Part shown: positions 26,362-41,059 of the stretch, piece by piece
Layout of the letters: each line of letters opens with the position of its first letter
Numbering within the stretch: the stretch's first letter is position 1
IMG/VR virus record: IMGVR_UViG_2061766007_000892
Source of the DNA: an uncultured virus (IMG/VR IMGVR_UViG_2061766007_000892)
Lineage: Duplodnaviria; Heunggongvirae; Uroviricota; Caudoviricetes
Reading direction: 5' to 3' (one strand)
DNA length: 64,000 nt
Notes under the pieces: generated by a model
The model's database searches: none
Seen by the model: only the letters and a program-made list of their open reading frames with translations
What the model was told of the DNA's origin: nothing
Made by a program: the position numbers and the translations under genes

Positions 26362-26436
26362 CCAGAAAATTTCCAGCTTGCCCAGCTTCCAGCTCGCGGG
26401 CCGGTTTTCCAGCTGGTCCGTTCGTATCCAGCTTGC
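26362..26436. repeat. CCAGCT repeats (5 copies) around the first GGCCGG core
   Basis: ccagcttgcccagcttccagctcgcgggccggttttccagctgg...ccagctt. Confidence 0.75.
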
Positions 26437-26786
26437 CACGCAATATAACCCCTCCTTATCCTTTCTAAAATAATTATAACATAAATTTATAGTATAGTCA
26501 AATAGTAGGCTTTACCACTTTACCATGCTAAAGTGTGAACTTAACCTAAACTTAACACAAAAATGCTTGATTCTTAACATAAAGTGTGCTATACTGAAGA
26601 GGGGAAGTCCGAAGTCCGAAAAAGTTAGTTTATATTAACTAACCGAGTTAGTTGCGACTAACTATTGCCTCCCCCCGATATTATACCATAGTGGTGTTAA
26701 GATTTGGGGAGTGTTTATGTTGACTTTTTGTTAAATTTCGGGCCGGGTAATTCCTTAACATAGAGTTTACACTATTAACGCGGAGT

Positions 26787-27017
26787 TTACACTCCGCGTC
26801 TTTCTTTTTGTAACTCGGCATATCGCCGCATAATTCTGAAGCACTTGATGGTGTGGATGATGGGGCAAAAGTGGATGTAAAGGAACTGACCAAACGGCAT
26901 CAGCAGAACCTTGCCATCGCGGAAAAAGGTCGTAAAGAAGGCAGTGCCCCAGAACCAGAGCATAAACAGGGACGAGGTGAGCCAAACGGACAGAGCGACT
27001 TCAATGATGAACTTCAT
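26787..27017 (-). CDS. small membrane protein, paralog A
   Basis: VALSVW...YIHFCPIIHTIKCF. Confidence 0.75.
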   Translation of the reverse strand: MKFIIEVALSVWLTSSLFMLWFWGTAFFTTFFRDGKVLLMPFGQFLYIHFCPIIHTIKCFRIMRRYAELQKERRGV

Positions 27018-27097
27018 TAAGTGTATTCCCCTTTCGTTTCTTGTATATATATAATACCATATCCTATTGTTAAGAAGCAACATATTTAAGGTAAAGT

Positions 27098-27310
27098 TTA
27101 ATGGCGTATGAGATTTTGTATTACCTTAAAGCATTTGTAAGTGTTAACAATGGGGCAGAAGTGATAATACATAAACTTAACAAAGGAAAAGTTCGGCAGC
27201 GGCTCCTCTATTGTAAGAGCAAGCAGGGCGTTATGAATAGAAAAGTAAATCATAAACATAGCAGAAGTAGTCCAGACAAGCAGAGCAACTTTAACAATAA
27301 GATTGAACAT
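27098..27310 (-). CDS. small membrane protein, paralog B
   Basis: VALLVW...YYHFCPIVNTYKCF. Confidence 0.75.
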   Translation of the reverse strand: MFNLIVKVALLVWTTSAMFMIYFSIHNALLALTIEEPLPNFSFVKFMYYHFCPIVNTYKCFKVIQNLIRH

Positions 27311-27437
27311 GGCGGCAAACCCCTTTCGTTTTCTGTATATATAATATCACATTTGACTGTTAAGAAGCAACAGAGTTTGGGTAAAGTTTGTGTAAAGTTG
27401 CTGGCCGGCCCGTTTCTTAACATAAAATTAACGACCA

Positions 27438-27629
27438 TCAAAGATGGTCGTTAGAATGTATTTGATAGGGAATGGTGGTTTCAGTATATTCATATACATC
27501 TTCCCAATGCCAATCATTATCACAGTCGTGACAGTGCGCTTCATAAGTAGCATATACTTTGCTGTCATATTCCTCAAAATCCACAAAAACCACATCTTCA
27601 AAGGTCTTACCACAATTAGGGCACTTCAT
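27438..27629 (-). CDS. acidic Zn-ribbon protein
   Basis: CPNCG...CHDC; AAGGAG RBS. Confidence 0.75.
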   Translation of the reverse strand: MKCPNCGKTFEDVVFVDFEEYDSKVYATYEAHCHDCDNDWHWEDVYEYTETTIPYQIHSNDHL

Positions 27630-27648
27630 AGATTATTCATTCTCCTTA

Positions 27649-27873
27649 TTATTCACAATCGGCATCCATTATGTCATAGAGTATTTCCATCCAATAGGCT
27701 TTACCATCTTTGGTCGTAATTGTATATCTATAATTATCTTCTTCCATATAAGATACAACGTCATCATCTTCAATGACAAAGTTTTCAATCGCTTTGCGGG
27801 CGTTAAGAACGCTGGAATACGTGCCGAAAAACATGTTGTTAAAGTAATTAGAAATTACAACCCAAGTCACCAT
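27649..27873 (-). CDS. hypothetical protein
   Basis: Own promoter and RBS. Confidence 0.7.
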   Translation of the reverse strand: MVTWVVISNYFNNMFFGTYSSVLNARKAIENFVIEDDDVVSYMEEDNYRYTITTKDGKAYWMEILYDIMDADCE

Positions 27874-28003
27874 ATTGTGCTGCCCCTTTCGTTTCTTTCT
27901 GTATATAGTATACTCCCTATTGAATGAAAAGTCAAGTTAAGATTTGGTTAAGTTCTGGCCGGCCCGAAAATTAACATAGAGTTAACCTTCGGGAGGAAGG
28001 GGA

Positions 28004-28339
28004 TTACTCCCCTTCCTTTTCTGCCTTGGCGGCTTCCCTCTTGGCGCGATCCTTCGCGGCCTTTTCGGCACGCTCGGCGGCACGCTTCGCCTTGGCTTCC
28101 TGCTTCGCGTTGTAGTCCGCGATTTCGGACGCCATCAGTTCATCCGCGGTTACGTCCTCGCGTTCCTCAGCCACAATCACGCCGACGCGAGCGTAGCGGC
28201 GAGTGCCGTTCACGTCCTCAACGATGCAACCATACTGGCGGTCGTTGATCTTGTGGAAGCCTTCAATGTTGGCGACGTTCAGAGCGGAGAAGATAGCGGT
28301 GCGGATGTTGGAATCAACGATAGCCTTGCTGATACGCAT
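28004..28339 (-). CDS. K/A/E-rich-tail family protein 1
   Basis: Own promoter and conserved leader hairpin; tail AKAKRAAERAEKAAK. Confidence 0.85.
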   Translation of the reverse strand: MRISKAIVDSNIRTAIFSALNVANIEGFHKINDRQYGCIVEDVNGTRRYARVGVIVAEEREDVTADELMASEIADYNAKQEAKAKRAAERAEKAAKDRAKREAAKAEKEGE

Positions 28340-28444
28340 AGTATTTACCCTTTCTGGTGTTTGGGATTTTCCTTTCCCTTTCTTGATTATATTATAGCAG
28401 AACTGAAGGGAGAAGTCAAGTTAAGTGTCAGTAAATTTTATGGT

Positions 28445-28510
28445 TAATTTTCTTTGCTATTGGAGTGCCAATACNNNNNNNNNNTTGTAAGTGTTTTCCT
28501 TCACTTCTTG
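28445..28510 (-). ncRNA. candidate short ORF-less transcript carrying the AAGGAAAA-loop hairpin
   Basis: TTGACA(28544-39)-17-TATAAT(28521-16), then AAGTG-AAGGAAAA-CACTT and a second hairpin TATTGG/CCAATA; contains a 10-nt N gap. Confidence 0.45.
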
Positions 28511-28540
28511 ATTATATTATATCACAGAGTTTGGGATTTG

Positions 28541-28696
28541 TCAAGTAAAGAATCGGTTAATTTTCTTTCTTGCCATGCGGCGGAGTTTGCGGCGGAGATT
28601 GCGCTGGTTCTTGTTATTGGAGATAAAACGGCGGCAACCCGCGTTCAAATCCCATGCCATAGTCTCGCGATCAATGCGCTTGTAGAGTGCTTTCAT
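28541..28696 (-). CDS. small basic protein
   Basis: Own promoter and RBS; R/K-rich. Confidence 0.7.
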   Translation of the reverse strand: MKALYKRIDRETMAWDLNAGCRRFISNNKNQRNLRRKLRRMARKKINRFFT

Positions 28697-28816
28697 TTCC
28701 TTTCCCTCCTGACATATATAGTATAGCAGAAACGCCAAGCAAAGTCAATAGGTTTACAAAAACTTAACAAAACGGGCCGGGCGATTAATTAACGAAAAAT
28801 TAACGCGGAATCCGCG

Positions 28817-29083
28817 TTAATGTTCTACTCGTTTAATGCGCCAAAACCAATTCCAAGGTTCTTGACTCAAAGAAGGTTTAATAGTGCGCCAATAATAACC
28901 AACTTTCATTCCTTTGAATACCAAGTGGCCATTTTCGCGAACGTGAGAATGGTAGACAATAAAGCCAATATGCCTGTTGTCTTGTTCTACCAGTCGATAC
29001 AAATCTTCTCGGACATCTTCGGGGAGATCTTCGGGACGATACCAACCCAGTTTGTGCGTTTTGCAATACTCTTTGAAAGTCAT
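28817..29083 (-). CDS. hypothetical protein
   Basis: Own promoter and RBS. Confidence 0.75.
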   Translation of the reverse strand: MTFKEYCKTHKLGWYRPEDLPEDVREDLYRLVEQDNRHIGFIVYHSHVRENGHLVFKGMKVGYYWRTIKPSLSQEPWNWFWRIKRVEH

Positions 29084-29195
29084 ATTGTTTTTACCCCTTT
29101 CTTTTTTCTATATATATTATACTCCCACATTTGAGAAAAGTCAAGTAAAGATTTTGTTAACTACAGGCCCGGCCCGACTTTTAACACAAAATTAA

Positions 29196-29217
29196 TAGAG
29201 GGCTTTCGCCCTCTATT
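29196..29217 (-). terminator. hairpin terminator-like
   Basis: AATAGAGGGC-TTTC-GCCCTCTATT (overlapping arms) directly after the stop codon. Confidence 0.7.
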
Positions 29218-29607
29218 TTACCGCAGGGTGTAGGTGTTAGCCTTCCCCTTGGCTTCGGTCTTTACAATCTCGTCCGCCAGTTCGTGGAGCAGAATATACT
29301 GCACCTTGGCGCTAGTGAAATCTTTGGGAAGCGCATCGGCGCAACGCTCAAAGATTTCCTTGGCGGTGCCGCCTTCAGTCAGAGCATCACGCAGGATGGG
29401 GAGAACCTGCGCCATCAGCACAGCGCGCTCATTAGCACGCTTAGCCTTAGCCCTCGCCTTAGTGTCCTCGCTGACCTTGCGCGGCTTCGCGATCTGGTCG
29501 CGAATCTTCGTGAGGACTTCCACCACTTCGGTGGGGTTCTCAATGTCCATGGGGATGGAGTTGATAGCAATGTTCAGAGCGTCAACGCGGGTGATGGTGT
29601 TCTTCAT
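29218..29607 (-). CDS. winged-helix-like family protein 1
   Basis: TAKEIFERCADALPKDFTSAKVQYILLHELADEIVK...NTY. Confidence 0.8.
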   Translation of the reverse strand: MKNTITRVDALNIAINSIPMDIENPTEVVEVLTKIRDQIAKPRKVSEDTKARAKAKRANERAVLMAQVLPILRDALTEGGTAKEIFERCADALPKDFTSAKVQYILLHELADEIVKTEAKGKANTYTLR

Positions 29608-29708
29608 AATGTTTCCCTTTCTGGTTTTTAGGACTTTTCCTTGTCCTCTTGATGTATTTATTATATCAGATTCCCAACCGTTTGTCAAGTTAAGATTCTG
29701 TTATAATC

Positions 29709-29769
29709 TGGTGGAGCGAGGGGGAGTCGAACCCCTCTCACCGATCAGCAGGTGCTCTGCTCTCGCCCC
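29709..29769 (-). ncRNA. 61-nt tRNA-like RNA (acceptor stem with G3.U70-equivalent pair, T-arm, ACCA end, no D-arm)
   Basis: GGGGCGA...GGGGTTCGACTCCCCC TCGCTCC A CCA; own TTGACA-17-TATAAT promoter at 29809-29781. Confidence 0.7.
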
Positions 29770-29825
29770 TTGATGTATTCATTATATCACGTTTGTGATG
29801 TAATGTCAAGTTAAGAGTTTGTTAA

Positions 29826-29910
29826 GTCGGTTTTAGGTGGCCGATCAACTGTTGCATGTTTCTAATTACCACAACGCGCTTGCGCCTGCGCGCTCCCGTT
29901 TCCCTCACCA
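29826..29910 (-). ncRNA. candidate small RNA
   Basis: Promoter 29947-29919; GC-rich; no ORF with an RBS before the next promoter. Confidence 0.5.
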
Positions 29911-30076
29911 ACAAATATAGTATAGCAGAAATCGCGGTGAAAGTCAATACTTTGGCGTGTAAAGATTATGTTAAATCGCGGGCCGGGTGATTACTTAACA
30001 AATATTTTACATTACCCGGCCCGAGTTAGTCCTGGCTAACTCGCTCATAAAAAGAAAAGGGCTTGCGCCCTTTTCC

Positions 30077-30473
30077 TTATTCCGCAAGGCGATAGGTGTT
30101 CGCCTTATTCTTGGTCTCGGTCTTGACGACCTCGTCCTTCATCTCACGCAGAAGGACAGCCTGAACCTTCGCGGCGGTGAAGTCCTGCGGCAGACGCTCC
30201 TGCGNNNNNNNNNNNNNNNNNNNNNNNNGTCATGTCAGCGGTCATGACATTGCGCAGAATCGGCACAACCTGCGCGCACATCTCGGCACGCTTCGCGGCG
30301 TTCTGCTCCTTGCGCTTCGCAGAAGCCTTCGCCTTGGAATCCTCGCTACGCTGGGAGCGCTTCGCAAGGGTCTCGCGCAGAGCAGTCAGACGCTCCGCAA
30401 CATCGGGCATGGTGTCCTTCATGGTGTCAATGGCGGTGGACAGAGCAACGGCGTAAGTCATGGTGTTCTTCAT
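30077..30473 (-). CDS. winged-helix-like family protein 2 (frame offset across N-run)
   Basis: 3' frame reads QERLPQDFTAAKVQAVLLREMKDEVVKTETKNKANTYRLAE*. Confidence 0.8.
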
Positions 30474-30569
30474 TTTGATTCCCTTTCTGGTTTGTGAGGT
30501 TTTCCTTCCTCTGTTGTGTATTCATTATAGCACGTTTTGTGCCTAATGTCAAGTTAAGAGTTTGTTAAG

Positions 30570-30705
30570 AGTTATTCCTTTTCGTTTCTCTTAACTACGC
30601 CTGCGGCTGTGCGCTTAGTGGGAACAGGCGGTCGTAAGTTGTGGGGAGTGCTTCGCGGGCGCCACGCGGTTGAGGGGCTATCCCCTGTTCCTGTCCTCTC
30701 AACAT
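30570..30705 (-). ncRNA. candidate structured small RNA (or leaderless 36-aa ORF)
   Basis: Promoter 30738-30710; GGAACAGG/CCTGTTCC long-range pairing. Confidence 0.5.
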
Positions 30706-30754
30706 CTTTATTATACCAGAGATTTTGTCGTTTGTCAAGTTAAGATTTTGTTAC

Positions 30755-30818
30755 GATTGGGAGGGATTCCGCCGCCACGGGACGCGCACGACGCGGTTTC
30801 CCTTTCCCCTCTCGACAT
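30755..30818 (-). ncRNA. candidate small RNA
   Basis: Promoter 30852-30824; GAGGG/CCCTC closing stem; no credible ORF. Confidence 0.5.
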
Positions 30819-30934
30819 ATATAATTATAGCGGAAGTTCTGCTCAAAGTCAAGTAATTATGAGACTATTTAACACAATCTTAACAAAGCGGGCCGGGCGA
30901 GTTTTTAACATAAAATTAAAGTAGCGGCGAACCG

Positions 30935-31213
30935 CTACTCAATTTCAATACTATAATGGTCATCAGGGCAGAACCAAACATCTTCATGTCCGTCAATATA
31001 ATTCCGTTCAGTGTTGGTAATGGTTAAATCAAAACCATTGCCAAGAATTGCGCCGATGGTCTGTTGAAGATTAGCCATCAATTCCTGCCGCAAAGTTTCA
31101 CGGCGTGCTTTCTTCTCATTTTCAACCTTGGTTTGACATGCTTTTGCAAGCGCTTCCAGTTCATTTAAGTTCAACAGAGAGAGATTGGTAATCATGCCGT
31201 CAAAAGTATTCAT
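30935..31213 (-). CDS. hypothetical protein
   Basis: Own promoter and RBS. Confidence 0.75.
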   Translation of the reverse strand: MNTFDGMITNLSLLNLNELEALAKACQTKVENEKKARRETLRQELMANLQQTIGAILGNGFDLTITNTERNYIDGHEDVWFCPDDHYSIEIE

Positions 31214-31277
31214 ATTGTTCTATTCCTTTCTTTTGATGTATTTATTATAGCATGGATTTAGAAGAAAGTCAAGTTAA

Positions 31278-31481
31278 TTATTCGTTAAGTCTATATTTTC
31301 CTTGCGGTTTAAATGGTTCATCATCAACAATAACTGGATAATCAGGAAATTTGAATAATCTCCAAAAGGAAAAACGCTTATAATTTTTAGACCAAATGCG
31401 GCCCAAATACCAATTGCCGAAAAGGTGAATAATGGGATAGCCAAAATCACGCAAACGCTGGATTCTTTCTTCACGATTCAT
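31278..31481 (-). CDS. hypothetical protein
   Basis: Own promoter, AAGGAG RBS. Confidence 0.7.
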   Translation of the reverse strand: MNREERIQRLRDFGYPIIHLFGNWYLGRIWSKNYKRFSFWRLFKFPDYPVIVDDEPFKPQGKYRLNE

Positions 31482-31609
31482 AAATGAAATCTCCTTTCCT
31501 TTTCTGCATATAGTATACATCAAATCAAGAATGAAGTCAAGTTAAATTTGTGTTAAATAACAAGCCGGCCCGAAATTTAACATACATTTAACAAAGAAGG
31601 AAGTAACGG

Positions 31610-32029
31610 TTACACCGTTACTTCCCTATCAAGATACTGGTTATCATCGTCTTTATCAATCGGCTGGGACACAAGAGCCTTAAAGCCTACCGTGTTAAGG
31701 TCTTTCACAACCTTGCGCGCGGTACGCTTGCGCTCCTTTTCCTTTTCGGCGCGCTCTGCCTTTTCCTTGCGCTTCGCCGCCTTATCTGCGCGGTCGGCAA
31801 GCGTCAACTTCCAATCATCGGCGGCGGCGTAACNNNNNNNNNNNNNNNNNNNNNNNNNNNNNNNNNNNNNNNNNNNNNNNNCAAACTTTTCGTTGCCTTC
31901 GCTGTCTACGACAGGCAGAGCCAGTTCGCTTGCGCTGATAGGGAGAATGTCGCTGATGGGGTTCACGGCGTCAATGATGGTCTTGAGAACACGGTTGCGG
32001 ATTTCAGTTTCAAGAGAAGCCTTACTCAT
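31610..32029 (-). CDS. K/A/E-rich-tail family protein 2
   Basis: Leader hairpin; AAADDWK...ADKAAKRKEKAERAEK. Confidence 0.8.
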   Translation of the reverse strand: MSKASLETEIRNRVLKTIIDAVNPISDILPISASELALPVVDSEGNEKFXXXXXXXXXXXXXXXXXYAAADDWKLTLADRADKAAKRKEKAERAEKEKERKRTARKVVKDLNTVGFKALVSQPIDKDDDNQYLDREVTV

Positions 32030-32104
32030 GGGCGTTAGTCCTTTCTGGTTTGTGGTGTTTTCCTTCACCTTCTGGATATAGTATAGCAGAGTCGGGAGAG
32101 GAAG

Positions 32105-32248
32105 TCAAGTTAAGAAATCGTTAATAATTTCTTCAAGATACAATTCATCGGGTGAAATGTCGCTGTATTCAATAGAAATAGAATTATCCTCGTTGCGCGT
32201 ATAAACGGTATGCGGGTTATTGGTGTCAACTTCAATGGTGATAATCAT
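32105..32248 (-). CDS. small acidic protein (47 aa)
   Basis: MIITIEVDTNNP...EEIINDFLT*; the stop codon lies within the next -35 box. Confidence 0.65.
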   Translation of the reverse strand: MIITIEVDTNNPHTVYTRNEDNSISIEYSDISPDELYLEEIINDFLT

Positions 32249-32364
32249 TTGACTTTCTCCTTTCATTTTCTATAATTATTATAACACAAATTTCAGAAAA
32301 AGTCAAGTAAATTTTTTGTTAAATCTCGGGCCGGGCAGAGTTAACACGGATTTAACAATCCGTG

Positions 32365-32559
32365 TTAATCTTTATCTCCTTCTACAAGTATATTACAGCG
32401 GTCATCAATCATAATATCAAATCGGTCAATATTATTAGAAATAAATTCTAAAGCCCAAGTTAACCGACGAAAATATTGAGCGTCATTATCACATTTAGTT
32501 AGCACCGCAACTAAATCACTATGCAACTGGGCGCGTTCTTTTCTCATTTTAAGTGTCAT
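32365..32559 (-). CDS. hypothetical protein
   Basis: ORF track, AAGGAG upstream. Confidence 0.65.
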   Translation of the reverse strand: MTLKMRKERAQLHSDLVAVLTKCDNDAQYFRRLTWALEFISNNIDRFDIMIDDRCNILVEGDKD

Positions 32560-32700
32560 TTAATCCTTTTCTCCTTTCATAGCGTCGCGGCAAATTCGCT
32601 TGCCCTCTTTGCGTTCGTTTTTTTTGTTCTTTTTCTTCGCAGGCATTACGGAGGGGCGATAACCAACCCATAACTCACGATTCTGATTTTTCTTATCCAT
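32560..32700 (-). CDS. small basic protein (46 aa)
   Basis: MDKKNQNRELWVGYRPSVMPAKKKNKK... Confidence 0.6.
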   Translation of the reverse strand: MDKKNQNRELWVGYRPSVMPAKKKNKKNERKEGKRICRDAMKGEKD

Positions 32701-32908
32701 TTTCTTTTCTCTCCAATTCTTCTATTCTTGACCAACAAGCCATGCCGAAACAATGATTCATAAAATTATCATCAGGGGAAAAATGATTTTGCCATAGATA
32801 CCTAACTTCTTCAACATCGTTCAAACTTTTAATAAAATTATAAACGGCGGTTTCATAGTCAGGCTGATTTAATACCGCGTCATAGTAACGATTGTCTAAG
32901 GTGTTCAT
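32693..32908 (-). CDS. hypothetical protein
   Basis: Own promoter and RBS. Confidence 0.7.
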   Translation of the reverse strand: MNTLDNRYYDAVLNQPDYETAVYNFIKSLNDVEEVRYLWQNHFSPDDNFMNHCFGMACWSRIEELERKENG

Positions 32909-32965
32909 ATTATGTTCCCCTCACTTTCTGGAATTATTATAGCAGATTAGAAGATAGAAGTCAAG

Positions 32966-33046
32966 TTAAGATTTTATTATGAACCAAAGATATAATCCTA
33001 ATATGATTAAGGGGCCAATACCACATAAAATTACTTCTTTAATCAT
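32966..33046 (-). CDS. 26-aa single-TM peptide
   Basis: MIKEVILCGIGPLIILGLYLWFIIKS*; own promoter and GAGGGAG RBS. Confidence 0.55.
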   Translation of the reverse strand: MIKEVILCGIGPLIILGLYLWFIIKS

Positions 33047-33150
33047 CTTGTCTCCCTCACTTTCTGTATATAGTATACACGATTCACACGCAGAAGTCAA
33101 GTTAAGATTCTGTTAAACGACGGGCCGGGCAAATATTAAGGCGCAGTTAA

Positions 33151-33390
33151 TTACCACGCCTCATCAACTTCATACATATCACAACCCGCGTAGGGATCAT
33201 AGTTAGTTTCATCTATGTCGTCGGGGATGTCGGGGCACTCCTCATCACAAACGCGCTCATACTCATCATCAAGTTGACACACCAATTCAACAAGTATATC
33301 ATAGGCACGATCAGGTTTACCATTCTTCAACATAGCAAGAGCGTCATCGGCGAGCATCCGCAGTTCGTAGAAAAGATGAGTATTAGTCAT
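33151..33390 (-). CDS. acidic hypothetical protein
   Basis: DETNYDPYAGCD C-terminal motif; own promoter. Confidence 0.75.
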   Translation of the reverse strand: MTNTHLFYELRMLADDALAMLKNGKPDRAYDILVELVCQLDDEYERVCDEECPDIPDDIDETNYDPYAGCDMYEVDEAW

Positions 33391-33496
33391 AGTTGAAATC
33401 TCCTTTCTTTTTCTATATATAGTATACCAAAATCCAGGAGGAAAGTCAAGTTAATTCTGTGTAAATTATCTGGCCGGCCCGAAAATTAACAAAGAA

Positions 33497-34207
33497 TTAA
33501 CGGAGAGCAATTGCTCCCCGCTTAACTTTTTGCCAACAATTCCTTTTTATTCCTTTAAAGTTTTTGTCATATTCCAAACATTTTTCCATAATTTCCTTTT
33601 CAATCTTAACATCATCATAACCTTTATGTTCCTCGTGGAAGTTAGGGTCATTTGTTAAGAAAGAGTAAACAGTTTCTGCGGTGGCGCGGTAGTTTTTGCC
33701 GTGATTTGAAAAGTGGCGGTTAGTTTCGGCAAACGTCTTATATTCACTGGTTTGACAAATAGTGTCACACGCCATATTCCAAATACATACAAAATTAGTA
33801 GAGTAAGGGAAGAAATAACGATATTTAGATTTCGTTAAGAAGCGGAGCGTGGTGTTAAGGGCGTTGCGGTCAAAATTACAATTATACGCCGCAACCGTAT
33901 GGCAGTCATATTTTTCCATTAGGTTAAGAATATGACGCCGCGCCGCCATAAAATCAATCATTTGACGCTTTCCCTGTTGGATGTCCGCAATATATTCAGG
34001 AATCTTATCGGCATAGTAGGCAACCTTTACAAGTTCGCGTTCATAGACGAAAGTGTCACGAATCACAAAAGAGCCTTGCTCGCAGATTGAGTTTGTGTAA
34101 AGATCAATCAGCACAAAGCCGATGTCATAAACGATGGCGTCGGTCGTATCGTTTGCGGTTTCAACGTCAAGAAGAAGGAGGTAGCGGTCGGTGATGTTCA
34201 GAATCAT
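33497..34207 (-). CDS. DnaQ/DEDDh 3'-5' exonuclease
   Basis: LLDVET, AYNCNFD, HKGYDD motifs. Confidence 0.85.
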   Translation of the reverse strand: MILNITDRYLLLLDVETANDTTDAIVYDIGFVLIDLYTNSICEQGSFVIRDTFVYERELVKVAYYADKIPEYIADIQQGKRQMIDFMAARRHILNLMEKYDCHTVAAYNCNFDRNALNTTLRFLTKSKYRYFFPYSTNFVCIWNMACDTICQTSEYKTFAETNRHFSNHGKNYRATAETVYSFLTNDPNFHEEHKGYDDVKIEKEIMEKCLEYDKNFKGIKRNCWQKVKRGAIALR

Positions 34208-34337
34208 TTCGGTGAGTTCCTTTCCTAATTTCTGTATATAGTATACACCTGCCACGAGCGAAAGTCAAGTTAAGATTGTGTTAATTCGCGGGCCGGGCAA
34301 AAAGTTAACATAAAATTAAAGAAGGGCTGTGCCCTTC

Positions 34338-34919
34338 TTAATGAATCATTCCATAAATAGAAAGCCAATCATTAATTTTTTCATCAATAATGTCAGGGTC
34401 GATTACAATATTAAAACGGTCATTAGGAACGTGAGTATTAGGATAGTATTCGGCTAAATAATCAATCATATCAAGTTCAACGTGTTTTGGATTTATTTTA
34501 CCACAATCCCATCCTTTAATAATTTTTACTGTTTGAACATTTGAGTAAGTTCCAGAATTATTATCGGCGTGTTCTTGCGCTCGTTTTGATAAAGTTCTTT
34601 CAGTCGTGCCAACTTTAGAAAAAAGAAATTTATGATTAAAGTCATAATAATACATAAGATAAAACCATTTTGCCGCGCGGTGAATATCATAAAAAGCATT
34701 ATTTCCTTCGCTAATACGGCGAATACGATTTTTCACTTTTTGAGTTTTGTCAATAATGAAATCTTTAATCCATTTATATCCAATAACCATTCCTTCTTCA
34801 ATATATTTGACAAGTTTTGTATAAGCAGAATAAATTTTGTGATAATCTACATAAGGACTGGAATAAATATTCCACTGGGTTTCTACTGCGATTTTATACT
34901 GCTGTTCATTGCGCTTCAT
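34338..34919 (-). CDS. GIY-YIG/T5orf172-like domain protein
   Basis: WFYLM...KVGTTER...R..EH...E pattern; AT-rich relative to neighbours. Confidence 0.55.
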   Translation of the reverse strand: MKRNEQQYKIAVETQWNIYSSPYVDYHKIYSAYTKLVKYIEEGMVIGYKWIKDFIIDKTQKVKNRIRRISEGNNAFYDIHRAAKWFYLMYYYDFNHKFLFSKVGTTERTLSKRAQEHADNNSGTYSNVQTVKIIKGWDCGKINPKHVELDMIDYLAEYYPNTHVPNDRFNIVIDPDIIDEKINDWLSIYGMIH

Positions 34920-35077
34920 TTTGTTTTATCTCCTCTCAACTTTCTATATATATATTATACATAAAAAGTATCTCGGAGTCAAGTTAAATGATTGTTAAGT
35001 CCGCGCCCGGCCCGAAAATTAACGAAACCTTAACAAAATGAAATGTAAAGAAAAACCGCCCCGAAGGGCGGTTAGTC

Positions 35078-35413
35078 TTACTTCACCATGTAGGTGAAGG
35101 CGGACTTGCCGTTGTCAATCTTGACAACTTCATCGCGCCAGTAGTTCAGCAGAGCGTACTGAATCTTGTGCGCGGTGAAGCCATCGGGCAGGTCGTTCTC
35201 GCACTTGGCGAAAATCTCCTTGACCGTCATCGGCGCGGTCATCACGCCGAACACGATGGGCTTCGCGGCATCGTAGGCGTTAGCCTTTTCCGCGGACTTG
35301 GCAACCGTGCGCTCATACTCGGCGCGAATGTCCTCAACCACAGCGGACAGGTCAACGGTGTCGTCAGAGTTCACGAAGTAGTTGTACAGAGCGGTCAGAG
35401 TGTTCTTCTTCAT
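35078..35413 (-). CDS. winged-helix-like family protein 3
   Basis: TVKEIFAKCENDLPDGFTAHKIQYALLNYWRDEVVK...FTY. Confidence 0.8.
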   Translation of the reverse strand: MKKNTLTALYNYFVNSDDTVDLSAVVEDIRAEYERTVAKSAEKANAYDAAKPIVFGVMTAPMTVKEIFAKCENDLPDGFTAHKIQYALLNYWRDEVVKIDNGKSAFTYMVK

Positions 35414-35504
35414 AGTGTAGTGTCCTTTCTGGTTTGGTGGGTTTTCCTTCCCTTTGATGTATTTATTATAGCACCAATCGGCTATAATGTCAAGTTAAGA
35501 GTTT

Positions 35505-35568
35505 GTTAAAGGATTCTTCCTCAATCTACTGGGTTCTTTCAACCAGATTCGGCAAGAACCCTTTAACA
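35505..35568 (-). ncRNA. candidate small RNA with alternative folds
   Basis: Promoter 35602-35574; GGGTTCTT pairs with either AAGAACCC or AAGAATCC. Confidence 0.5.
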
Positions 35569-35616
35569 TCTTCATTATATCACGATTTCCCAACTTTGTC
35601 AAGTTAAGATTTCGTG

Positions 35617-35690
35617 AAGCTCAGGGCTCGCAAGCTCGGTGGCCATCTCCGAAGCATCAAAGGTTTTTAGCCCCTGTTTCCTTTCGACAT
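35617..35690 (-). ncRNA. candidate small RNA
   Basis: Promoter 35723-35695; CAGGG(G)CT/AGCCCTG closing stem; no start codon properly spaced from the RBS-like tract. Confidence 0.5.
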
Positions 35691-35872
35691 ATATAGTATA
35701 GCAGAAATTGAAATGAAAGTCAAACACTTAATGGGAAAGTTAACCAAATCTTAACATTGCGGGCCGGCCCGCGAATGTTAAGTTTTTGTAAAGTGCTTGA
35801 CTCTTGGCGGAATCTCTGCTATAATATTTACAGAAGCCAAGGAAAAGGCTCAAAAACCAGAAAGGGAATAAT

Positions 35873-36190
35873 ATGAACGCTAACGAAATCAAGTCCACCG
35901 CTCGTCAGATGACCATCTCTGCTATCATGCCCTCCCTGATGGACAACGATGCCGTCAAGTTCGCTGATGGCTCCTTCGCCATCCTCCAGACTGTTGACGG
36001 TCAGGAAGTTTGGACGGAAGTTACCGTCAAGTCCAAGGCGTGGAAGGACACCAAGGTGTCCAAGGCTTTTGACCCCTTCGTGGCTGCGGAGGAGTGGGAA
36101 GCCGAGAAGCGCATCAAGGCTGATGCCAAGGCTGCCAAGGATGCCGAAAAGGCTGCCAAGGTAGCCAAGGCTAAGAAGGAAGAGGCGTAA
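35873..36190 (+). CDS. K/A/E-rich-tail family protein 3 (inverted unit)
   Basis: Own promoter, leader hairpin and terminator. Confidence 0.85.
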   Translation: MNANEIKSTARQMTISAIMPSLMDNDAVKFADGSFAILQTVDGQEVWTEVTVKSKAWKDTKVSKAFDPFVAAEEWEAEKRIKADAKAAKDAEKAAKVAKAKKEEA

Positions 36191-36335
36191 GCCTCTTTTC
36201 TTTTTCTTAACAGTTAGTTGCGACTAACCGGGCCGGGAACTGTCCAAATTTTGTCATAATATAGATTTAACTTTGTCTTTGCCTTTCTTATAATCTTGTG
36301 CTATACTATATATAGAAAACAGGGAGGGTAAAACA

Positions 36336-36467
36336 ATGAATGAGAATTTTGCAAAGGTTTGGGTGCTGGGCGTTTCGGTTATGATGTTCTTGGCTTGCTT
36401 TTTTGGGAGCGGTTGGTTGTTTGGCGTTGCGGCTATGTTAATATTGGGATTTGTTAAGATGATGTAA
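36336..36467 (+). CDS. 43-aa membrane peptide
   Basis: MNENFAKVWVLGVSVMMFLACFF...; GGAGGG RBS and own promoter. Confidence 0.6.
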   Translation: MNENFAKVWVLGVSVMMFLACFFGSGWLFGVAAMLILGFVKMM

Positions 36468-36518
36468 AGCCGCGGCCCGGCCCGAAATTTAACAAAGAAA
36501 TAACAAAAGAAGGAGGGG

Positions 36519-36842
36519 TTAAACCCCTTCCTTCTCCTTGCGCTTGGCTTCCTTTTCGGCGGCCTTGCGCGCCTTCTCCGCGGCCTTCTCCGCGCGCTCT
36601 GCCAGTTCGGCATTGAACGCGGCAACCTTGGCGTCTACGTCAAACGCTTCGGTCTTTGCCGTGTTATACCAGTTGGGACAGGAAATCTCAACCTTGGCGA
36701 ACAGCGGATGTCCGTTGTCCTCTGCGGTGCCCATCGGGATGGCGTAGGTGAAATCGTCAATCTGGATGGCATTACCGAAAAACTCGGTGAACTGCTCGGC
36801 GACGGCGGTCTTAACGTTGGTGCGAATTTCCATCTTAGTCAT
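36519..36842 (-). CDS. K/A/E-rich-tail family protein 4
   Basis: Leader hairpin; AFDVDAKVAAFNAELAERAEKAAEK. Confidence 0.85.
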   Translation of the reverse strand: MTKMEIRTNVKTAVAEQFTEFFGNAIQIDDFTYAIPMGTAEDNGHPLFAKVEISCPNWYNTAKTEAFDVDAKVAAFNAELAERAEKAAEKARKAAEKEAKRKEKEGV

Positions 36843-36920
36843 GTTGTTTCCCTTTCTGGTTTGGAAGAGTTTTCCTTCTCTTATGTTCTTATTATAGCAG
36901 AAGTTGTGGAAGAAGTCAAG

Positions 36921-37082
36921 TTAAGATTTCATTAAATCTTGAATCAGTTGATGGATTTTTTCATAGTCCTCTTGATAACGATAGAGGTCAAATAAATGGA
37001 GTCGTGCGCGTTTGATGCGCGGGGACGCGGGTTGCTTTTTAATCCAATTGCGCATAGTATCAAGTTCCCAATTCCAATTCAT
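36921..37082 (-). CDS. small hypothetical protein (53 aa)
   Basis: MNWNWELDTMRNWIKKQP...; own promoter and RBS. Confidence 0.65.
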   Translation of the reverse strand: MNWNWELDTMRNWIKKQPASPRIKRARLHLFDLYRYQEDYEKIHQLIQDLMKS

Positions 37083-37183
37083 ATTGTATCCCCTCTTTCT
37101 GTAATTATTATAGCAGAATTTCGGGAAGAAGTCAAGTAAAGGTTGTGTTAAAAATCGGGCCGGCCAGAAAAGTTAAGATTCTG

Positions 37184-37621
37184 TTAAGCGAGGCTCAACA
37201 GAATCTTCATCATTTCATCGGGGTGGTAGGCGTTGCCGCCCCACGCTTCGCGGTTCGGGGCTTCGTCATCAAACAGGATACCCTCGCCGCACACGTCCCA
37301 CTTATTGCGACCATAGGCGACAATGTTAACCGCGTCCCACTTGACGGAGCCGAGATGCTTGTGGAGCCACCACAGTTTGGCGGCGGTCACTGCTTCGTCA
37401 TATTCGGGAGTGCTGGACTTGCTCAGCCAGCTGATGATTCCGAGCTTGTAGCCAGCTCGCTGGAGCTTATTCAGCGTCCGCGCCAGCTTGTTCATGTTGA
37501 CCAGCGGAGCCGCCAGCTTGTAGGGCGCGGGATTGCTATCAATCAGCATCGGGAGCCAATTTTCAACGCCGTAGAGGTTCGCAATCGTGCCATCCATGTC
37601 AAACCAGATCGTCTGCTTCAT
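37184..37621 (-). CDS. HAD-family (5'-nucleotidase-like) phosphatase
   Basis: WFDMDGTIANLY, IISW, K..W, ILFDD. Confidence 0.85.
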   Translation of the reverse strand: MKQTIWFDMDGTIANLYGVENWLPMLIDSNPAPYKLAAPLVNMNKLARTLNKLQRAGYKLGIISWLSKSSTPEYDEAVTAAKLWWLHKHLGSVKWDAVNIVAYGRNKWDVCGEGILFDDEAPNREAWGGNAYHPDEMMKILLSLA

Positions 37622-37801
37622 TTTGTTTACTTCCTTTCCTCTTTCTGTATATATTATATACCGAGCGGCGGCAAAAGTCAAGAGGTTAAAGGATGATTTA
37701 ACATGGATTTAACATGGCGGGCCGGGTGTTTTCTTAAAATGAAATTAACAGTTAGTTAGAGGAAACTAACTCACTGGCCGGCTAATAAATTAACAGGCCG
37801 G

Positions 37802-37942
37802 TTACGGGAGAATAATCTCCCGCACCGTCCATTCAACTCCTGTGCAGTTCGTTCTGAAATTGGCTGCGTTTTGCGCCTCTTCGCGCGTATGGTAAGAGGA
37901 AGAACCTTCAAAATTGCCGCAATAAATCCGATAGACGATCAT
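37802..37942 (-). CDS. small hypothetical protein (46 aa)
   Basis: Own promoter, AAGGAG RBS. Confidence 0.65.
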   Translation of the reverse strand: MIVYRIYCGNFEGSSSYHTREEAQNAANFRTNCTGVEWTVREIILP

Positions 37943-38074
37943 AAAATGAAATTCTCCTTTCGTTTCTTTCTGGAATAATTATAGCATATTGAGAATGAAA
38001 TGTCAAGTAGTTTTAGGATGTTTAACATAGAATTAACATTACTGGCCGGCCCGAAAATTAACATTAAAATAACA

Positions 38075-38243
38075 AACCGCGAGAGTTGATCAGTCTCTCG
38101 CGATGGGCAAAAACATCATTGACTTGCCCAAGGTCAATGGGGAACGGTTTTCGCATAATCGCTGGGGTCAGTTCTCCACCGCCAAGTGGTCTGTTGCCCC
38201 TTACTTTAACCCAATGGAATCACTCCCTCTTTCCTTTCGACAT
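38075..38243 (-). ncRNA. candidate structured RNA with H-type pseudoknot and 3' terminator
   Basis: Promoter 38276-38248; CATTGAC/GTCAATG plus TGGGCAA/TTGCCCA; CGCGAGAG/CTCTCGCG hairpin. Confidence 0.6.
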
Positions 38244-38346
38244 ATATATAATAACATAATTTCTGGAGGAAGTCAAGTTAATTGTTTGTTAACTTGCGGG
38301 CCGGCCGCGAATTTTACATAGAATTAAAGAAGGCATTAAGCCTTCT

Positions 38347-38499
38347 TTAATTGCAAAGTTGTTCGATGATGGTCATAATTACGCCGAAAATCAGAGGCGT
38401 CACCCAACACAAAGCACCATAGGGTACTTTGCCCATTGACCACAGAATGAAGTCAATCAAACCAGTAACTATGAGGATAAAGCTAATACCAATACGCAT
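38347..38499 (-). CDS. 50-aa two-TM peptide
   Basis: MRIGISFILIVTGLIDFILW...; variant leader hairpin. Confidence 0.65.
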   Translation of the reverse strand: MRIGISFILIVTGLIDFILWSMGKVPYGALCWVTPLIFGVIMTIIEQLCN

Positions 38500-38588
38500 A
38501 TTATTATCCTTTCTGGTTTTAAAGTGTTCCCTTCACTTGTTGTGTATAATATATCATATTAGAGTTGAGAAGTCAAGTTAAGATTTTG

Positions 38589-38780
38589 TTATATTACTTT
38601 CATTGTTTCTACTTCTCTATAAAAAGCATGGTCGCTCCAACTATTTTTATAGTGGATATTATTAAAATTTTCACACCATTTTTTCGCTTCTTCTTCTGTC
38701 GCAGTAAAGCCCATTGACGTGTCTTTTGTGCCGATATACACACCGCAATCGCAAGGAGTAGAAACAAAAAGCTGATACAT
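38589..38780 (-). CDS. hypothetical protein
   Basis: Own promoter and RBS. Confidence 0.7.
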   Translation of the reverse strand: MYQLFVSTPCDCGVYIGTKDTSMGFTATEEEAKKWCENFNNIHYKNSWSDHAFYREVETMKVI

Positions 38781-38885
38781 ATGATTTTCTCCCTTCATTT
38801 GATGTATATAGTATAGCATTTTATGAGTAAATTGTCAAGTTAATTGTGTGTTAACCCGCCGGCCGGCCAGAAAGTTAACGCAGAC

Positions 38886-39131
38886 TTAACGTCTGCGTCT
38901 TGCTTTCTGCTGGTCAAAACGCTCATATGCGCTGACCTTGCGATATTCGTTATACTCGGCTTCGGTGATTTCCTTGCCATAGATTGCCATGCGCGTGTGC
39001 TTAACACTTGGCATCCTGCGCGCTTTGTCGCAAGCATCCAGAAGATTGTTCGCCGCGATTGCGAACTTGATTTCAGTGCTGTGGCCTACGCCGCAATGAC
39101 CCCGATGGCACATGACCATGTAGAACTTCAT
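38886..39131 (-). CDS. His/Cys-containing basic protein
   Basis: CHRGHCGVG...MPSVKH; own promoter. Confidence 0.75.
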   Translation of the reverse strand: MKFYMVMCHRGHCGVGHSTEIKFAIAANNLLDACDKARRMPSVKHTRMAIYGKEITEAEYNEYRKVSAYERFDQQKARRRR

Positions 39132-39203
39132 TTGAATTGCTCCCTTCGTTCTTTCTGTATTTATTATAGCAGATTGGTTGGTGATTGTCAAGTTAAGTTT
39201 GTG

Positions 39204-39380
39204 TTAAAGCAGACCAAAGATTTTTGCTGGGATAGGTGATAGCATCATCATGCTAAGGAAAACAATCATACGCCAATTAACCTTGAAGCAATCATTTTCA
39301 TCGGCATCATCCGCATGGAGGATACCAAAGAAACCAAACAAGCAAGCAACCAACACATAAGGAATCATCAAAAACTTCAT
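39204..39380 (-). CDS. 58-aa membrane peptide
   Basis: MKFLMIPYVLVACLFGFFGIL...; own promoter. Confidence 0.65.
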   Translation of the reverse strand: MKFLMIPYVLVACLFGFFGILHADDADENDCFKVNWRMIVFLSMMMLSPIPAKIFGLL

Positions 39381-39482
39381 TTTCTTTCCCTCACTTTCTG
39401 ATATTATTATACATTATCGCGCCAGGAAAGTCAATAGTTTTTATGTTAGGATTGTGTTAAATAACGGGCCGGCCCGAAAAGA

Positions 39483-39674
39483 TGAGAGGGGCGTTTCTTC
39501 CCCTCTCGGTGGCTCCATCCTTCTAGCCTAGCGCTTCCAGAGCCCGCGCGTATGTTGCCTGCACATTTATATACCGCAAAGGAGGGCTTCGGCTTGCGGT
39601 GGTTTCATCGGTTAGGACTTACGGACGCTCTTGGGTCTCACCCGTTGTGGGCTTTGCCTTCCCTCAACCTCTGT
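39483..39674 (-). ncRNA. candidate ~190-nt multi-stem RNA
   Basis: Promoter 39707-39679; stems ACCGCAA/TTGCGGT, GGCTC/GAGCC, GAGAGGGG/CCCCTCTC. Confidence 0.55.
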
Positions 39675-39759
39675 ATATATTATAATCCAAGAGTTGCGAT
39701 TTGTCAAGTTAAGAGTTTGTTAACAAGCGGGCCGGCCAGCGGAGAGCATGTGCTCTCCA

Positions 39760-39885
39760 TTAGGCCGCGGGGCGGATGATCAGATCCGCCCGATCCGCCC
39801 AAGTTAGGCGGAGCGCCTGCGCCTCGCGCAGGGAGAGGCCCGACAGGATGACCCTGCCAGTGCTGACCTTGTAAATCTCAAACAT
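39760..39885 (-). CDS. small protein (41 aa)
   Basis: MFEIYKVSTGRVILSGLSLREA...; AAGGAG RBS and own promoter. Confidence 0.65.
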   Translation of the reverse strand: MFEIYKVSTGRVILSGLSLREAQALRLTWADRADLIIRPAA

Positions 39886-39974
39886 TTTGTTTTCTCCTTT
39901 CCTTTGATGTGTCTATTATACCAGATTGTAGCTTGCCTGTCAAGTTAAGATTTGGTTTAGTTGGACGCCCGCCG

Positions 39975-40442
39975 TTAGGCGTTAGCGTCCAACCACGCCA
40001 GCATCTTGGAGCTGGTAGCCGCGATCCGGATGACCCCGCGCTCGTTGAGCTTGGCGAACTTCCGCAGGAACCGCTCGAACTTCGTGGCATTCATCTTGTA
40101 GATGGTAGCCAGCTCGTCGGTGGTGGTCACATACCAGAACTCGGAGCTCGCCACCTGCTCGAAGTAGGCCGTCAGGCTCGCTTCGAAGCTGTCAGCCAGC
40201 TTCATGTTGGTCAGGCTTGCCTTGGAGCTCTTGATGCTCGCGCGGAACTCGGGAATATCGGAGCCTTCATCGAAGCGGGTATTAGCATCCTTGTGGGGAT
40301 CCAGCCCGTGGAGCGCCTTGGCGACAGCTTCCATGAACTCGCCGCCGTTGAGCCAGCTTTCGCCGCCGTTGATGCTATACTTGGCGCCTTTGCGCGCGGC
40401 GTTGTAGGTGTAAGTCAGGTTAATTTCACGGGTCATCTTCAT
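39975..40442 (-). CDS. possible PD-(D/E)xK-fold protein
   Basis: NGGEFME...GSD...SIKSS pattern. Confidence 0.6.
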   Translation of the reverse strand: MKMTREINLTYTYNAARKGAKYSINGGESWLNGGEFMEAVAKALHGLDPHKDANTRFDEGSDIPEFRASIKSSKASLTNMKLADSFEASLTAYFEQVASSEFWYVTTTDELATIYKMNATKFERFLRKFAKLNERGVIRIAATSSKMLAWLDANA

Positions 40443-40769
40443 TTCAAGCACCTCTCTTTCAACTGTATATATTATAACAGACCAATGTTAACTGATAAGC
40501 ATTTTTTGATGAAGTTTGTGTAAAGTTGTGAAATTCAATCTACGGTAGAATTTGCTCCAAGTTGCGCAACCAACAGTTGATTAGTTAGCCTAAACTAACT
40601 CGGCGGGCCGGTCCATTTCTTAACCTGTTCTTAACAGAAAAGTTTCATATAGTTTTAACATAGAGATAATACGTAGTTAACATTAATATGGTATAATATC
40701 GGGGGAGCCTCAAGTTAGTTATGACTAACTTTAGTTAGTTAGTCTAAACTAACTGGGCCGGCCCGTTAT

Positions 40770-41010
40770 CATTATACTGCCACTTTACTATGATAAAGTA
40801 GTGCTACTTTATTATGCTACTATGTTATCACTTTATCATACTACTACTTTACTATGTTACCACTTTACTATGCTACCATGCTACTATGCTGCTACTTTAC
40901 TATGATGCTATATTATCACTTTACCATGCTATCATACTGCTACTTTACTATGCTACCATACTATTACTTTACCATGTTACTATAAAACTACTTTACTATG
41001 ATAAAAGTCA
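40770..41010. repeat. degenerate tandem repeat of CTACTTTACTATG/CTACCATG units
   Basis: Low-complexity array beginning with the palindrome ACTTTA-CTATGA-TAAAGT. Confidence 0.85.
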
Positions 41011-41059
41011 AAAGTCAAAGAAAGTCAAATTGGCCGGCCCGTGAATTACAAAACTATTT

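Follow-up and report, generated by a model that had tools for sequence, protein, structure and literature searches.

Why should only some of the many small early genes of a large phage begin their messages with a tiny hairpin whose stem differs from copy to copy while its loop hardly changes? The question is posed by 64,000 nucleotides of DNA from an uncultured virus of the Caudoviricetes (IMG/VR record IMGVR_UViG_2061766007_000892), called the window throughout, which is part of such a phage of gut Clostridia, with genes for a portal protein, an RNA ligase, a polynucleotide kinase and a dCMP deaminase. The stretch from about 27.9 to 45 kb is a dense array of small genes, each with a near-consensus TTGAC-N17-TGnTATAAT promoter, and it was in this array that an earlier note had drawn attention to the hairpins. 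We show that the hairpin is a covarying RNA element fixed to a ribosome-binding site (RBS) and that it marks a subset of genes, as that note had supposed. We suggest, with a probability a little under one half (about 0.48), that this leader module is a portable cis-acting translation-initiation or expression module working with the translation and decay machinery of the host.

Within the window the module is found in eight complete copies and in one that is truncated by masked bases (the ‘orphan’ copy), and these nine copies carry eight different stems. The order of parts is a few bases, a hairpin of 3–5 bp, an A-rich linker, ACCAGAAAGG, 7–10 nt and ATG, and the leaders are 47–52 nt long (n=8). 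The loop is AAGGAAAA in 7 of the 8 complete copies and in the orphan, and AAGGGAA in the eighth complete copy. The hairpins that had been listed earlier are all present on the sense strand, with the stems given for them, the loop AAGGAAAA and then ACCAGAAAGG, and so is the variant AAGTG-AAGGGAA-CACTT before gene 38499. All nine hairpins sit directly downstream of strong sigma-70-type promoters. The copies are as follows, each with its score against the covariance model described below.

28346..28382 (-), leader module: GGGA-AAGGAAAA-TCCC, AAACA, CCAGAAAGG; promoter 28419-28391; 50.3 bits; hairpin in the minimum-energy fold
28485..28505 (-), ‘orphan’ copy: AAGTG-AAGGAAAA-CACTT ACAA, then 10 masked bases; promoter 28544-28516; partial match of 22.8 bits, model positions 5-25
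29613..29650 (-), leader module: (A)GGAC-AAGGAAAA-GTCC(T), AAAAA, CCAGAAAGG; promoter 29688-29660; 55.4 bits
30479..30515 (-), leader module: GAGG-AAGGAAAA-CCTC, ACAAA, CCAGAAAGG; promoter 30552-30524; 53.6 bits
32037..32073 (-), leader module: GGTG-AAGGAAAA-CACC, ACAAA, CCAGAAAGG; promoter 32108-32080; 54.5 bits
35421..35457 (-), leader module: GGG-AAGGAAAA-CCC, ACCAAA, CCAGAAAGG; promoter 35493-35465; 48.4 bits
35831..35868 (+), leader module: AGCC-AAGGAAAA-GGCT, CAAAAA, CCAGAAAGG; promoter 35797-35825; 48.8 bits
36848..36885 (-), leader module: AAGAG-AAGGAAAA-CTCTT, CCAAA, CCAGAAAGG; promoter 36919-36891; 53.3 bits
38505..38541 (-), variant leader module: AAGTG-AAGGGAA-CACTT, TAAAA, CCAGAAAGG; promoter 38576-38548; 40.3 bits

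Such an arrangement is not expected by chance. The pattern AAGGAAAA-N6-14-CCAGAAAGG occurs 7 times in the window against 0.00 expected (100 shuffles), and CCAGAAAGG occurs 8 times against 0.34 expected, with a hairpin adjoining all 8. When the entire window was searched, with filters off, with a covariance model (R1) made from copies in relatives, only the eight complete copies (40–55 bits) and the orphan (22.8 bits) were found, the best remaining match scoring 11 bits. The module is present on 8 of the 42 promoter-led open reading frames (ORFs) of the window.

All 8 window leaders contain the hairpin in their minimum-energy fold, and in these folds the Shine–Dalgarno sequence (SD) is open or engaged in merely 2–3 weak pairs. 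A ribosome standby site was considered and set aside, as the SD of the eight leaders is not sequestered in stable structure in those same folds. A trans-acting anti-leader RNA was also sought in the window: complements of CCAGAAAGG are only the antisense of the leaders themselves, and TTTTCCTT lies on the transcribed strands within coding regions only.

The hairpin recurs far beyond the window, and there its stem covaries. When viral contigs were scanned for the exact loop and RBS pattern, at least 187 loci and at least 203 matches were found, and bacterial genome records were scanned with a stricter pattern; the pooled and downstream counts given below are built on the matches listed and are hence lower bounds. 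Stems of at least three consecutive pairs were present in 181 of the 203 viral matches listed, as against about 5% by chance, and the 22 stemless matches among those listed mostly lack a promoter. The bacterial records gave 146 loci, 102 of them with stems; titles were shown for 80 of the 146, and among these 52 of the 56 stem-bearing loci belong to Clostridia (Oscillospiraceae, Acutalibacteraceae, Ruminococcus, Christensenellales and ‘Eubacteriales’), whereas 20 of the 24 stemless loci come from other phyla. Pooled, 297 of the 363 matches listed have stems, which leaves 250 unique copies with 48 different 4-bp stems. In an alignment of 147 rows, preselected for the three inner pairs, 96.6% of the cells are paired as opposed to 58% after shuffling, the covariation score is 0.963 as opposed to 0.222 (a value of 0.963 being reached by 0 of 500 shuffles), all four stem pairs show changes on both sides, and shifting the partner by one column lowers pairing to 34–50%. 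The model also picked out 47 copies in five related contigs; in these, which are outside that preselection although their alignment was fitted to the model, pairing is 98.3% versus 64.9% after shuffling. The claim of strong covariation is thus borne out in both sets. The related phage contigs, one of which is a complete 184-kb genome with terminal repeats, hold 9–11 copies each inside 10–15 kb, and the users of the module are phages and other mobile elements, chiefly those of Clostridia from gut and rumen.

It had further been proposed that a match to a known Rfam family would remove the novelty of the element. No Rfam 15 family matches the leaders in gathering or permissive mode, in the window or in 20 further leader loci; over the window at the gathering threshold only a group I intron at 49211-49422 was reported, and RF00522 (preQ1-I) gave no match at E up to 5 in window positions 28000-45000 or at E up to 10 in the 20 leader loci. 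Near-identical DNA to the window was not found in the GenBank phage collection, nor was a description of the motif found in full-text word searches of open-access papers. We conclude that the module is uncatalogued and forms a new variety within the structured leaders at ribosome-binding sites.

Comparison of the copies shows which parts are fixed. The consensus is a few unpaired 5′ bases, a hairpin of 3–6 bp, a linker of 4–6 nt (79% A, 14% C), CC, AGAAAGG, 7–11 nt and the start codon, and CCAGAAAGG is intact in 46 of the 47 relative copies. Their loops are AAGGAAAA (32 copies), AAGGGAAA (4), AAGGAAA (3), AAGGATA (2) and AAGGACA (2), with AAGGCAA, GAGGGAAA, AGGGAAA and ACGGACAA found once each, so that GG alone is invariant (47/47), within a core that reads GGA in 40, GGG in 6 and GGC in 1. 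The end of the loop is 9–10 nt from the CC in 258 of 286 unique copies among the matches listed (6–14 nt being permitted), and this distance does not increase with stem length; in chance matches it is flat over the 6–14 range. Where the base before AGAAAGG is not C, just 4 of 117 matches have a stem and 0 a promoter. Variants with a loop G changed to A (scanned as loops AAGAAAAA and AAAGAAAA with two pyrimidines before AGAAAGG; rare variants may exist) were chance-like only, with stems in 3/117 and 3/116 among the matches listed and none behind a promoter.

The RBS that is coupled to this hairpin differs from that of the neighbouring genes. In a comparison set formed by the promoter-led genes of the window and of five related contigs, GGAG, GAGG or GGGG occurs within the last 20 nt in 0 of 51 hairpin leaders, as against GGAG in 66 and GAGG in 48 of 142 ordinary leaders (Fisher 1e-11 and 3e-8), and the predicted SD:anti-SD energy is a uniform -9.4 kcal/mol as against -12.5 kcal/mol (p 2e-14); the copies are related by descent, and these p-values overstate their independence. 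AGAAAGG, of which AGAAAGGAGG is a lengthened form, is complementary to the final 7 nt of Firmicute 16S rRNA (CCUUUCU-3′). In a Ruminococcus isolate that bears the element, the 16S gene terminates in ...GGATCACCTCCTTTCT|AAGG, the bar standing at what we take to be the mature end, placed on this gene after Bacillus-type 16S. Pairing to 16S rRNA as the source of the CC was ruled out, the gene reading ...CCTTTCTAAGG. The base that follows AAAGG in the 250 unique copies listed is A in 146, G in 63, T in 21 and C in 20, and ‘AG’ as the following two bases is seen about once in these 250. Judged by these sequences, the hairpin leaders constitute a second, sharply distinct type of RBS within one genome, which is free of GGAG and is predicted to pair with the extreme 3′ tail of 16S rRNA. 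The ordinary early leaders are mostly 21–37 nt long and have (C/T)AGAAAG near the inferred start, then an SD of the GGAG/GAGG type. As a separate observation, the initial (C/T)AGAAAG of the hairpin-less leaders in window positions 27900-45000 also complements the extreme 16S 3′ end, and their 5′ end itself may pair with the ribosome.

Transcript starts were inferred from promoters. A promoter match accompanies 245 of the 286 copies listed, and the stem mostly begins 8–14 nt past the -10 box, and so no more than a few bases away from the inferred 5′ end. For the other 41 of these 286 copies no promoter match lies within 70 nt; in other mobile elements some of these come straight after an upstream stop codon, one ahead of each gene in a tandem of two or three. 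Two runs labelled metatranscriptomic contained 5–6% of the words, and their contigs gave only fragments of relatives, with no starts, strands or levels. A second leader word, ACAAGGTTGAGGGAA or ACAAGGTTGAGAGAGAAA, was also observed right past the -10 box (loci L204, L221, L271, L286 and L332; window 39707 (-) and 43319 (+)), and in other mobile elements the hairpin module often stands 20–40 nt further on from this word.

In the earlier note the hairpin was taken to mark two paralog families, one of winged-helix-like proteins with three members and one of proteins with a tail rich in lysine and alanine (K/A) with four. The genes behind the complete copies are listed here, with G+C content at third codon positions (GC3) and results of AlphaFold2 (AF2) modelling, with mean confidence (pLDDT), where obtained.

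28004..28339 (-), K/A-tail protein gene, 111 aa: ORF; GC3 0.74, AAG use 100%
29218..29607 (-), winged-helix-like protein gene, 129 aa: ORF; paralog of the 30473 and 35413 genes; GC3 0.72
30084..30473 (-), winged-helix-like paralog gene: ORF; interior masked (N), end approximate
31610..32029 (-), K/A-rich protein gene, ~139 aa: ORF; interior masked
35078..35413 (-), winged-helix-like protein gene, 111 aa: AF2 model, pLDDT 83.3
35873..36190 (+), K/A-tail protein gene, 105 aa: ORF; GC3 0.72, AAG use 100%
36519..36842 (-), K/A-tail protein gene, 107 aa: ORF
38347..38499 (-), hydrophobic membrane-like 50-aa ORF behind the variant leader: GC3 0.47, not codon-optimised

Both families are real locally. 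The genes 29607, 30473 and 35413 are paralogs of one another (E 2e-16 and 4e-14); the four K/A-tail proteins have weaker mutual similarity, much of it in the low-complexity tail, and share a layout of a helix, three strands and a long charged helix (28339 product in AF2: pLDDT 90.9, with a helix, 3 strands and a 45-residue helix). The 50-aa ORF behind the variant copy belongs to neither family, and it has an ortholog with a hairpin leader in relative G001. Elsewhere the idea of a family mark fails: the 115 distinct full-length proteins encoded downstream of the module, among the matches listed, fall into 48 BLAST clusters, and a leader that precedes at least 48 unrelated protein clusters is portable, the two paralog families being its local users only. 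Moreover, these 48 clusters and the promoterless copies between genes tie the module to the ribosome site, not to the promoter.

The downstream proteins themselves offered few clues. No Pfam family scored over cut-offs in the 48 cluster representatives, nothing significant was found with Pfam and PHROGs in the six unmasked downstream proteins of the window, and ESM Atlas matches were solely to ‘hypothetical protein’ virus clusters. The C-terminal helix-helix-helix-strand-strand of the 35413 product has weak winged-helix matches (1ldd_A, TMt 0.68; Fur; CopR; E 0.04-0.2). Searches of the K/A-tail model against the PDB and fold collections gave nothing at E up to 0.001, the wide search being swamped by the long helix; weak rows for SPO1 Acb4, the N-terminal domain of Tn916 integrase and RsmE/CsrA (E 0.3-1.1, probability 0.2-0.9 over 27-51 columns) were not counted as evidence.

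The orphan copy had been thought to act as a decoy RNA, a proposal that we do not retain. Because the 10 bases past its hairpin are masked (N at 28476-28485), the window cannot show that an RBS is missing there. Relative G002 has the counterpart of this promoter and AAGTG hairpin, with CCAGAAAGA after it, and there they stand before a 60-aa ORF that is equipped with a terminator. This cassette is missing from the window behind the orphan leader, where the next promoter, hairpin and gene (28339) follow about 60 nt downstream. A terminator-like site between the orphan and that next promoter was not found in the window. From this comparison the orphan is best read as the probable leader remnant of a lost gene cassette, standing in tandem with the next unit.

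How might the module act? In the portable initiation module that we favour, a moderate SD without a GGAG core would act together with a folded element upstream of it. The fold would hold or recruit the 30S subunit through its SD-like loop (predicted to pair with the anti-SD at -4.7 kcal/mol) and possibly by docking beside the SD helix; where it stands at the 5′ end, it would in addition protect the message against 5′-end-dependent decay. For Bacillus mRNAs, sections of PMC5737220 describe protection from RNase J1 by 5′-proximal structures and by initiating ribosomes. We infer that the effect is one of boosting or stabilising, not of repressing, and that the partner is the host machinery. The codon use of the hairpin-led genes gives a hint of high expression, in that within the window their GC3 is 0.72 as against 0.44 (p=0.003) and their AAG use 100% as against 50% (p 0.02), the EF-Tu gene of the isolate having a similar preference for NNC and AAG (0.73 and 0.95); the link is also seen in three close relatives.

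Several considerations weigh against such a role, beginning with the fact that it is deduced from sequence. The leader folds are thermodynamically weak (-3.9 to -9.8 kcal/mol, z-scores -2.0 to +0.4), so the case for the hairpin is one of conservation, not of stability. The link with codon use is weak or absent in two distant contigs (GC3 0.46 versus 0.49, and 0.49 versus 0.41) and may therefore reflect conserved core gene families instead of the leader. No obvious host housekeeping gene carries the module among the 102 stem-bearing loci of the bacterial records, which is odd for a plain ribosome-recruiting enhancer. Finally, the invariant GG of the loop and the invariant CC point to a specific partner or a tertiary contact, and a trans-acting repressor would fit all these observations equally well.

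Considering which partner that might be, the earlier note had drawn an analogy with CsrA/RsmA. CsrA prefers GGA in loops and can bind two sites at once, and here AAGGA stands in a hairpin loop some 17–18 nt upstream of the GG(A) of the RBS, so that a CsrA dimer could bridge the two. Yet PF02599 was over the cut-off in only 7 of 25 element-bearing genomes (1/5 and 6/20; the bins may be incomplete), being absent from the Ruminococcus isolate G006 and from the bin G011, to which the closest relative belongs, and CsrA was found in 0 of 5 related phage contigs, the complete 184-kb genome included, and in none of the 83 window ORFs. The second GGA is not conserved either (A follows the RBS GG in the 146 of 250 copies listed given above, and 5 of the 8 window copies read GGG), 7 of the 47 relative loops are GGG or GGC, and CsrA binding requires neither a CC nor a rigid spacing; we regard this operator as extremely unlikely and do not uphold the analogy. 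An operator for some other sequence-specific RNA-binding protein, encoded by the host or the element, which would read the loop and the CCAG-RBS and would repress or time a sub-regulon, much as T4 RegA acts on about 30 early messages, is a possibility that we hold to be doubtful. It would account for a loop core and CCAGAAAGG that are invariant next to free stems, for the fixed spacing and for the restriction to a minority of promoter-led genes, and RegA-type repressors are described, in the parts of PMC3014915 that deal with them, as competing with ribosomes at initiation regions. Against it, Pfam recognised no RNA-binding family in the 83 ORFs of the window, which is about one-third of such a genome, and the module is present in very different elements, from 180-kb phages to small operons, so that a dedicated partner must travel along or be a host protein.

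The tertiary contact could lie within the leader itself. In a mini-pseudoknot of the H type, loop bases G3G4 would pair with the CC before the SD, and the A-rich linker would lie in the minor groove of the stem, giving a compact fold that abuts the SD and is either constitutive or stabilised by a ligand or the ribosome. The invariance of both GG and CC while other loop positions vary, the fact that the hairpin is never without the C, the constant spacing at any stem length, the linker composition and a CC that 16S pairing leaves unexplained all speak for this fold; but its second helix would have just 2 bp and would be set apart from the first by four loop bases, ViennaRNA has the CC paired with the GG of the SD itself in 5 of 8 leaders, and the G-to-A loop variants are chance-like with or without C-to-T partners. 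Since neither the GG nor the CC side ever varies, covariation cannot test the second helix, and we judge the pseudoknot unlikely. A more specific form of it, which seems to us slightly less probable again, would dock on the ribosome and complete the SD helix: AGAAAGG would pair from the last 16S nucleotide, the GG:CC helix would continue the rRNA strand past its 3′ end (CCUUUCU|GG opposite CCAGAAAGG) and would stack on the SD:anti-SD duplex. Such docking would explain why CC and AGAAAGG adjoin with no spacer, why GG and CC are both invariant, why the loop keeps a fixed distance from CC and why GGAG is absent. It is also conceivable, though we think it very unlikely, that early messages free of GGAG resist an endoribonuclease like T4 RegB and are expressed for longer; RegB is described in part of PMC3014915 as cutting GGAG/U in early SD regions, with structure protecting, and both the total lack of GGAG in the 51 hairpin leaders and the near-absence of G as the second base after AAAGG would follow, but a RegB-like protein was not recognised in the window, an optimum of SD length could equally explain the avoidance of G, and the invariant loop is left unexplained. 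A role at the level of DNA, with the promoter–leader block serving as homology for cassette shuffling and the RNA fold being incidental, is to us extremely unlikely as well: G002 has the cassette that the window lacks behind the orphan leader, and the early region is a dense cassette array with 34 GGCCGG sites, but compensatory stem changes and an invariant loop are unexpected for a recombination site, and the module also occurs between genes in unrelated elements.

Whatever its mode of action, the module is very small and very common, with 9–11 copies per phage of about 180 kb and hundreds across mobile elements. If, as we propose, it boosts or stabilises expression, it would be a portable expression part for gut anaerobes that are hard to engineer, and a marker of genes needed in bulk early. 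If it is an operator, it would define a phage sub-regulon and point to a new RNA-binding regulator; and the ribosome-docking pseudoknot, if true, would be a new route, independent of the core SD and used by mobile elements of Clostridia, to an initiation site of high occupancy.

A number of other features of the window were observed in passing. A 60-nt tRNA-like unit at 29709-29769 (-), promoter 29809-29781, has a 7-bp acceptor stem, a T-arm GGGGG-TTCGACT-CCCCC and an encoded CCA; ARAGORN found no tRNA in the window, this unit included, and the Rfam tmRNA model matches it with its two ends only (21.5 bits, E 2.8e-5, gathering score 47), so it may be a minimal tRNA-like domain. About ten strong promoters lead into GC-rich stretches with no convincing ORF and no Rfam match (29947, 30852, 35723, 38276 (-); 30738, 35602, 39707 (-); 41845, 44337 (+)), four of which start alike with ATAT(A/T)TGT(C/T)G and then a purine-rich G run; these units may be a family of small phage RNAs. 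The 34 GGCCGG sites all lie in the early-gene region 26399-45208, most within (C)GGGCCGG(C/G)CCG palindromes flanked by TTAAC words between cassettes. Degenerate tandem repeats with periods of 8, 16, 24 and 48 and a unit like TACTATGCTACCACTT fill 40802-41029, where the leftward and rightward early arms diverge, and could be an origin or a field of regulatory iterons. The group I intron at 49211-49422 (Rfam, 96.8 bits), with a GIY-YIG homing endonuclease ORF at 48502-49314, is placed between ORFs 46836-47780 and 49581-50570, which belong to PHROGs of unknown function just upstream of the portal gene; that these are the two halves of a terminase gene is a guess from position only. On the minus strand, 16543-17421 encodes an AAA_33 plus HD protein of the kinase/phosphatase type (PHROG polynucleotide kinase) and 20273-21412 an RNA ligase of the T4 Rnl1 type, together a predicted RNA repair pair. 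The G+C content is 22–36% in the left 28 kb and 37–48% in the early cassette region, and 53–61% in the hairpin-led genes.

Finally, the module can be set beside known systems. The CsrA consensus served for the first of these comparisons: like CsrA/RsmA site pairs, the module combines an A(N)GGA-loop hairpin with a GG-containing RBS a fixed short distance downstream and occurs on several messages per genome, but there is no CsrA in 18 of 25 carriers or in 5 of 5 phage contigs, and the CC and the rigid 9–10 nt spacing are features of the module. Lambda boxB/N-type hairpins are likewise short elements of early transcripts with free stem sequence and a conserved purine-rich loop; unlike them, the module is locked to the RBS, occurs also between genes, has an 8-nt loop and lacks a boxA-like partner. 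The preQ1-I and other H-type mini-pseudoknots at ribosome-binding sites are similar in size (~35 nt), in their short first helix and A-rich tail, in a 3′ end that abuts the SD and in the possibility of a second helix between loop and tail. RF00522 does not match the module, however, whose second helix would be of 2 bp, whose 9–11 copies per phage genome precede unrelated genes and whose context suggests no ligand. With the Bacillus 5′ stabilisers and STAB-SD sequences (hbs, cry3A), as portrayed in sections of PMC5737220, the module shares a Firmicute setting and a hairpin or SD-like sequence, which in most copies is predicted to lie near the 5′ end. In the Bacillus cases such a hairpin, or an SD-like sequence bound by 30S, protects from RNase J1, with a central part played by ribosomes initiating at the SD; in the module the loop of the hairpin carries the SD-like bases and keeps a fixed distance to a core-less SD, and the 41 of 286 copies listed that lack a promoter are not 5′-terminal. 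The T4 post-transcriptional controls, in the portions of PMC3014915 that cover them, also sort early messages into classes by short signals in the initiation region, and the T4 gene 32 leader has a pseudoknot and an A-rich stretch leading to the RBS; but RegA sites are there described as unstructured and A+U-rich and the gene 32 operator as that of a single gene, and homologues of RegA, RegB and gp32 were not recognised among the window proteins. With the PeSL-type cassette arrays of T4-like phages the window has in common many tiny early genes with their own promoters, repeated flanking signals, and gain and loss of cassettes between relatives. Unlike the PeSL system, which concerns shuffling at the level of DNA, the hairpin described here has been selected as RNA, as its compensatory stem changes indicate.

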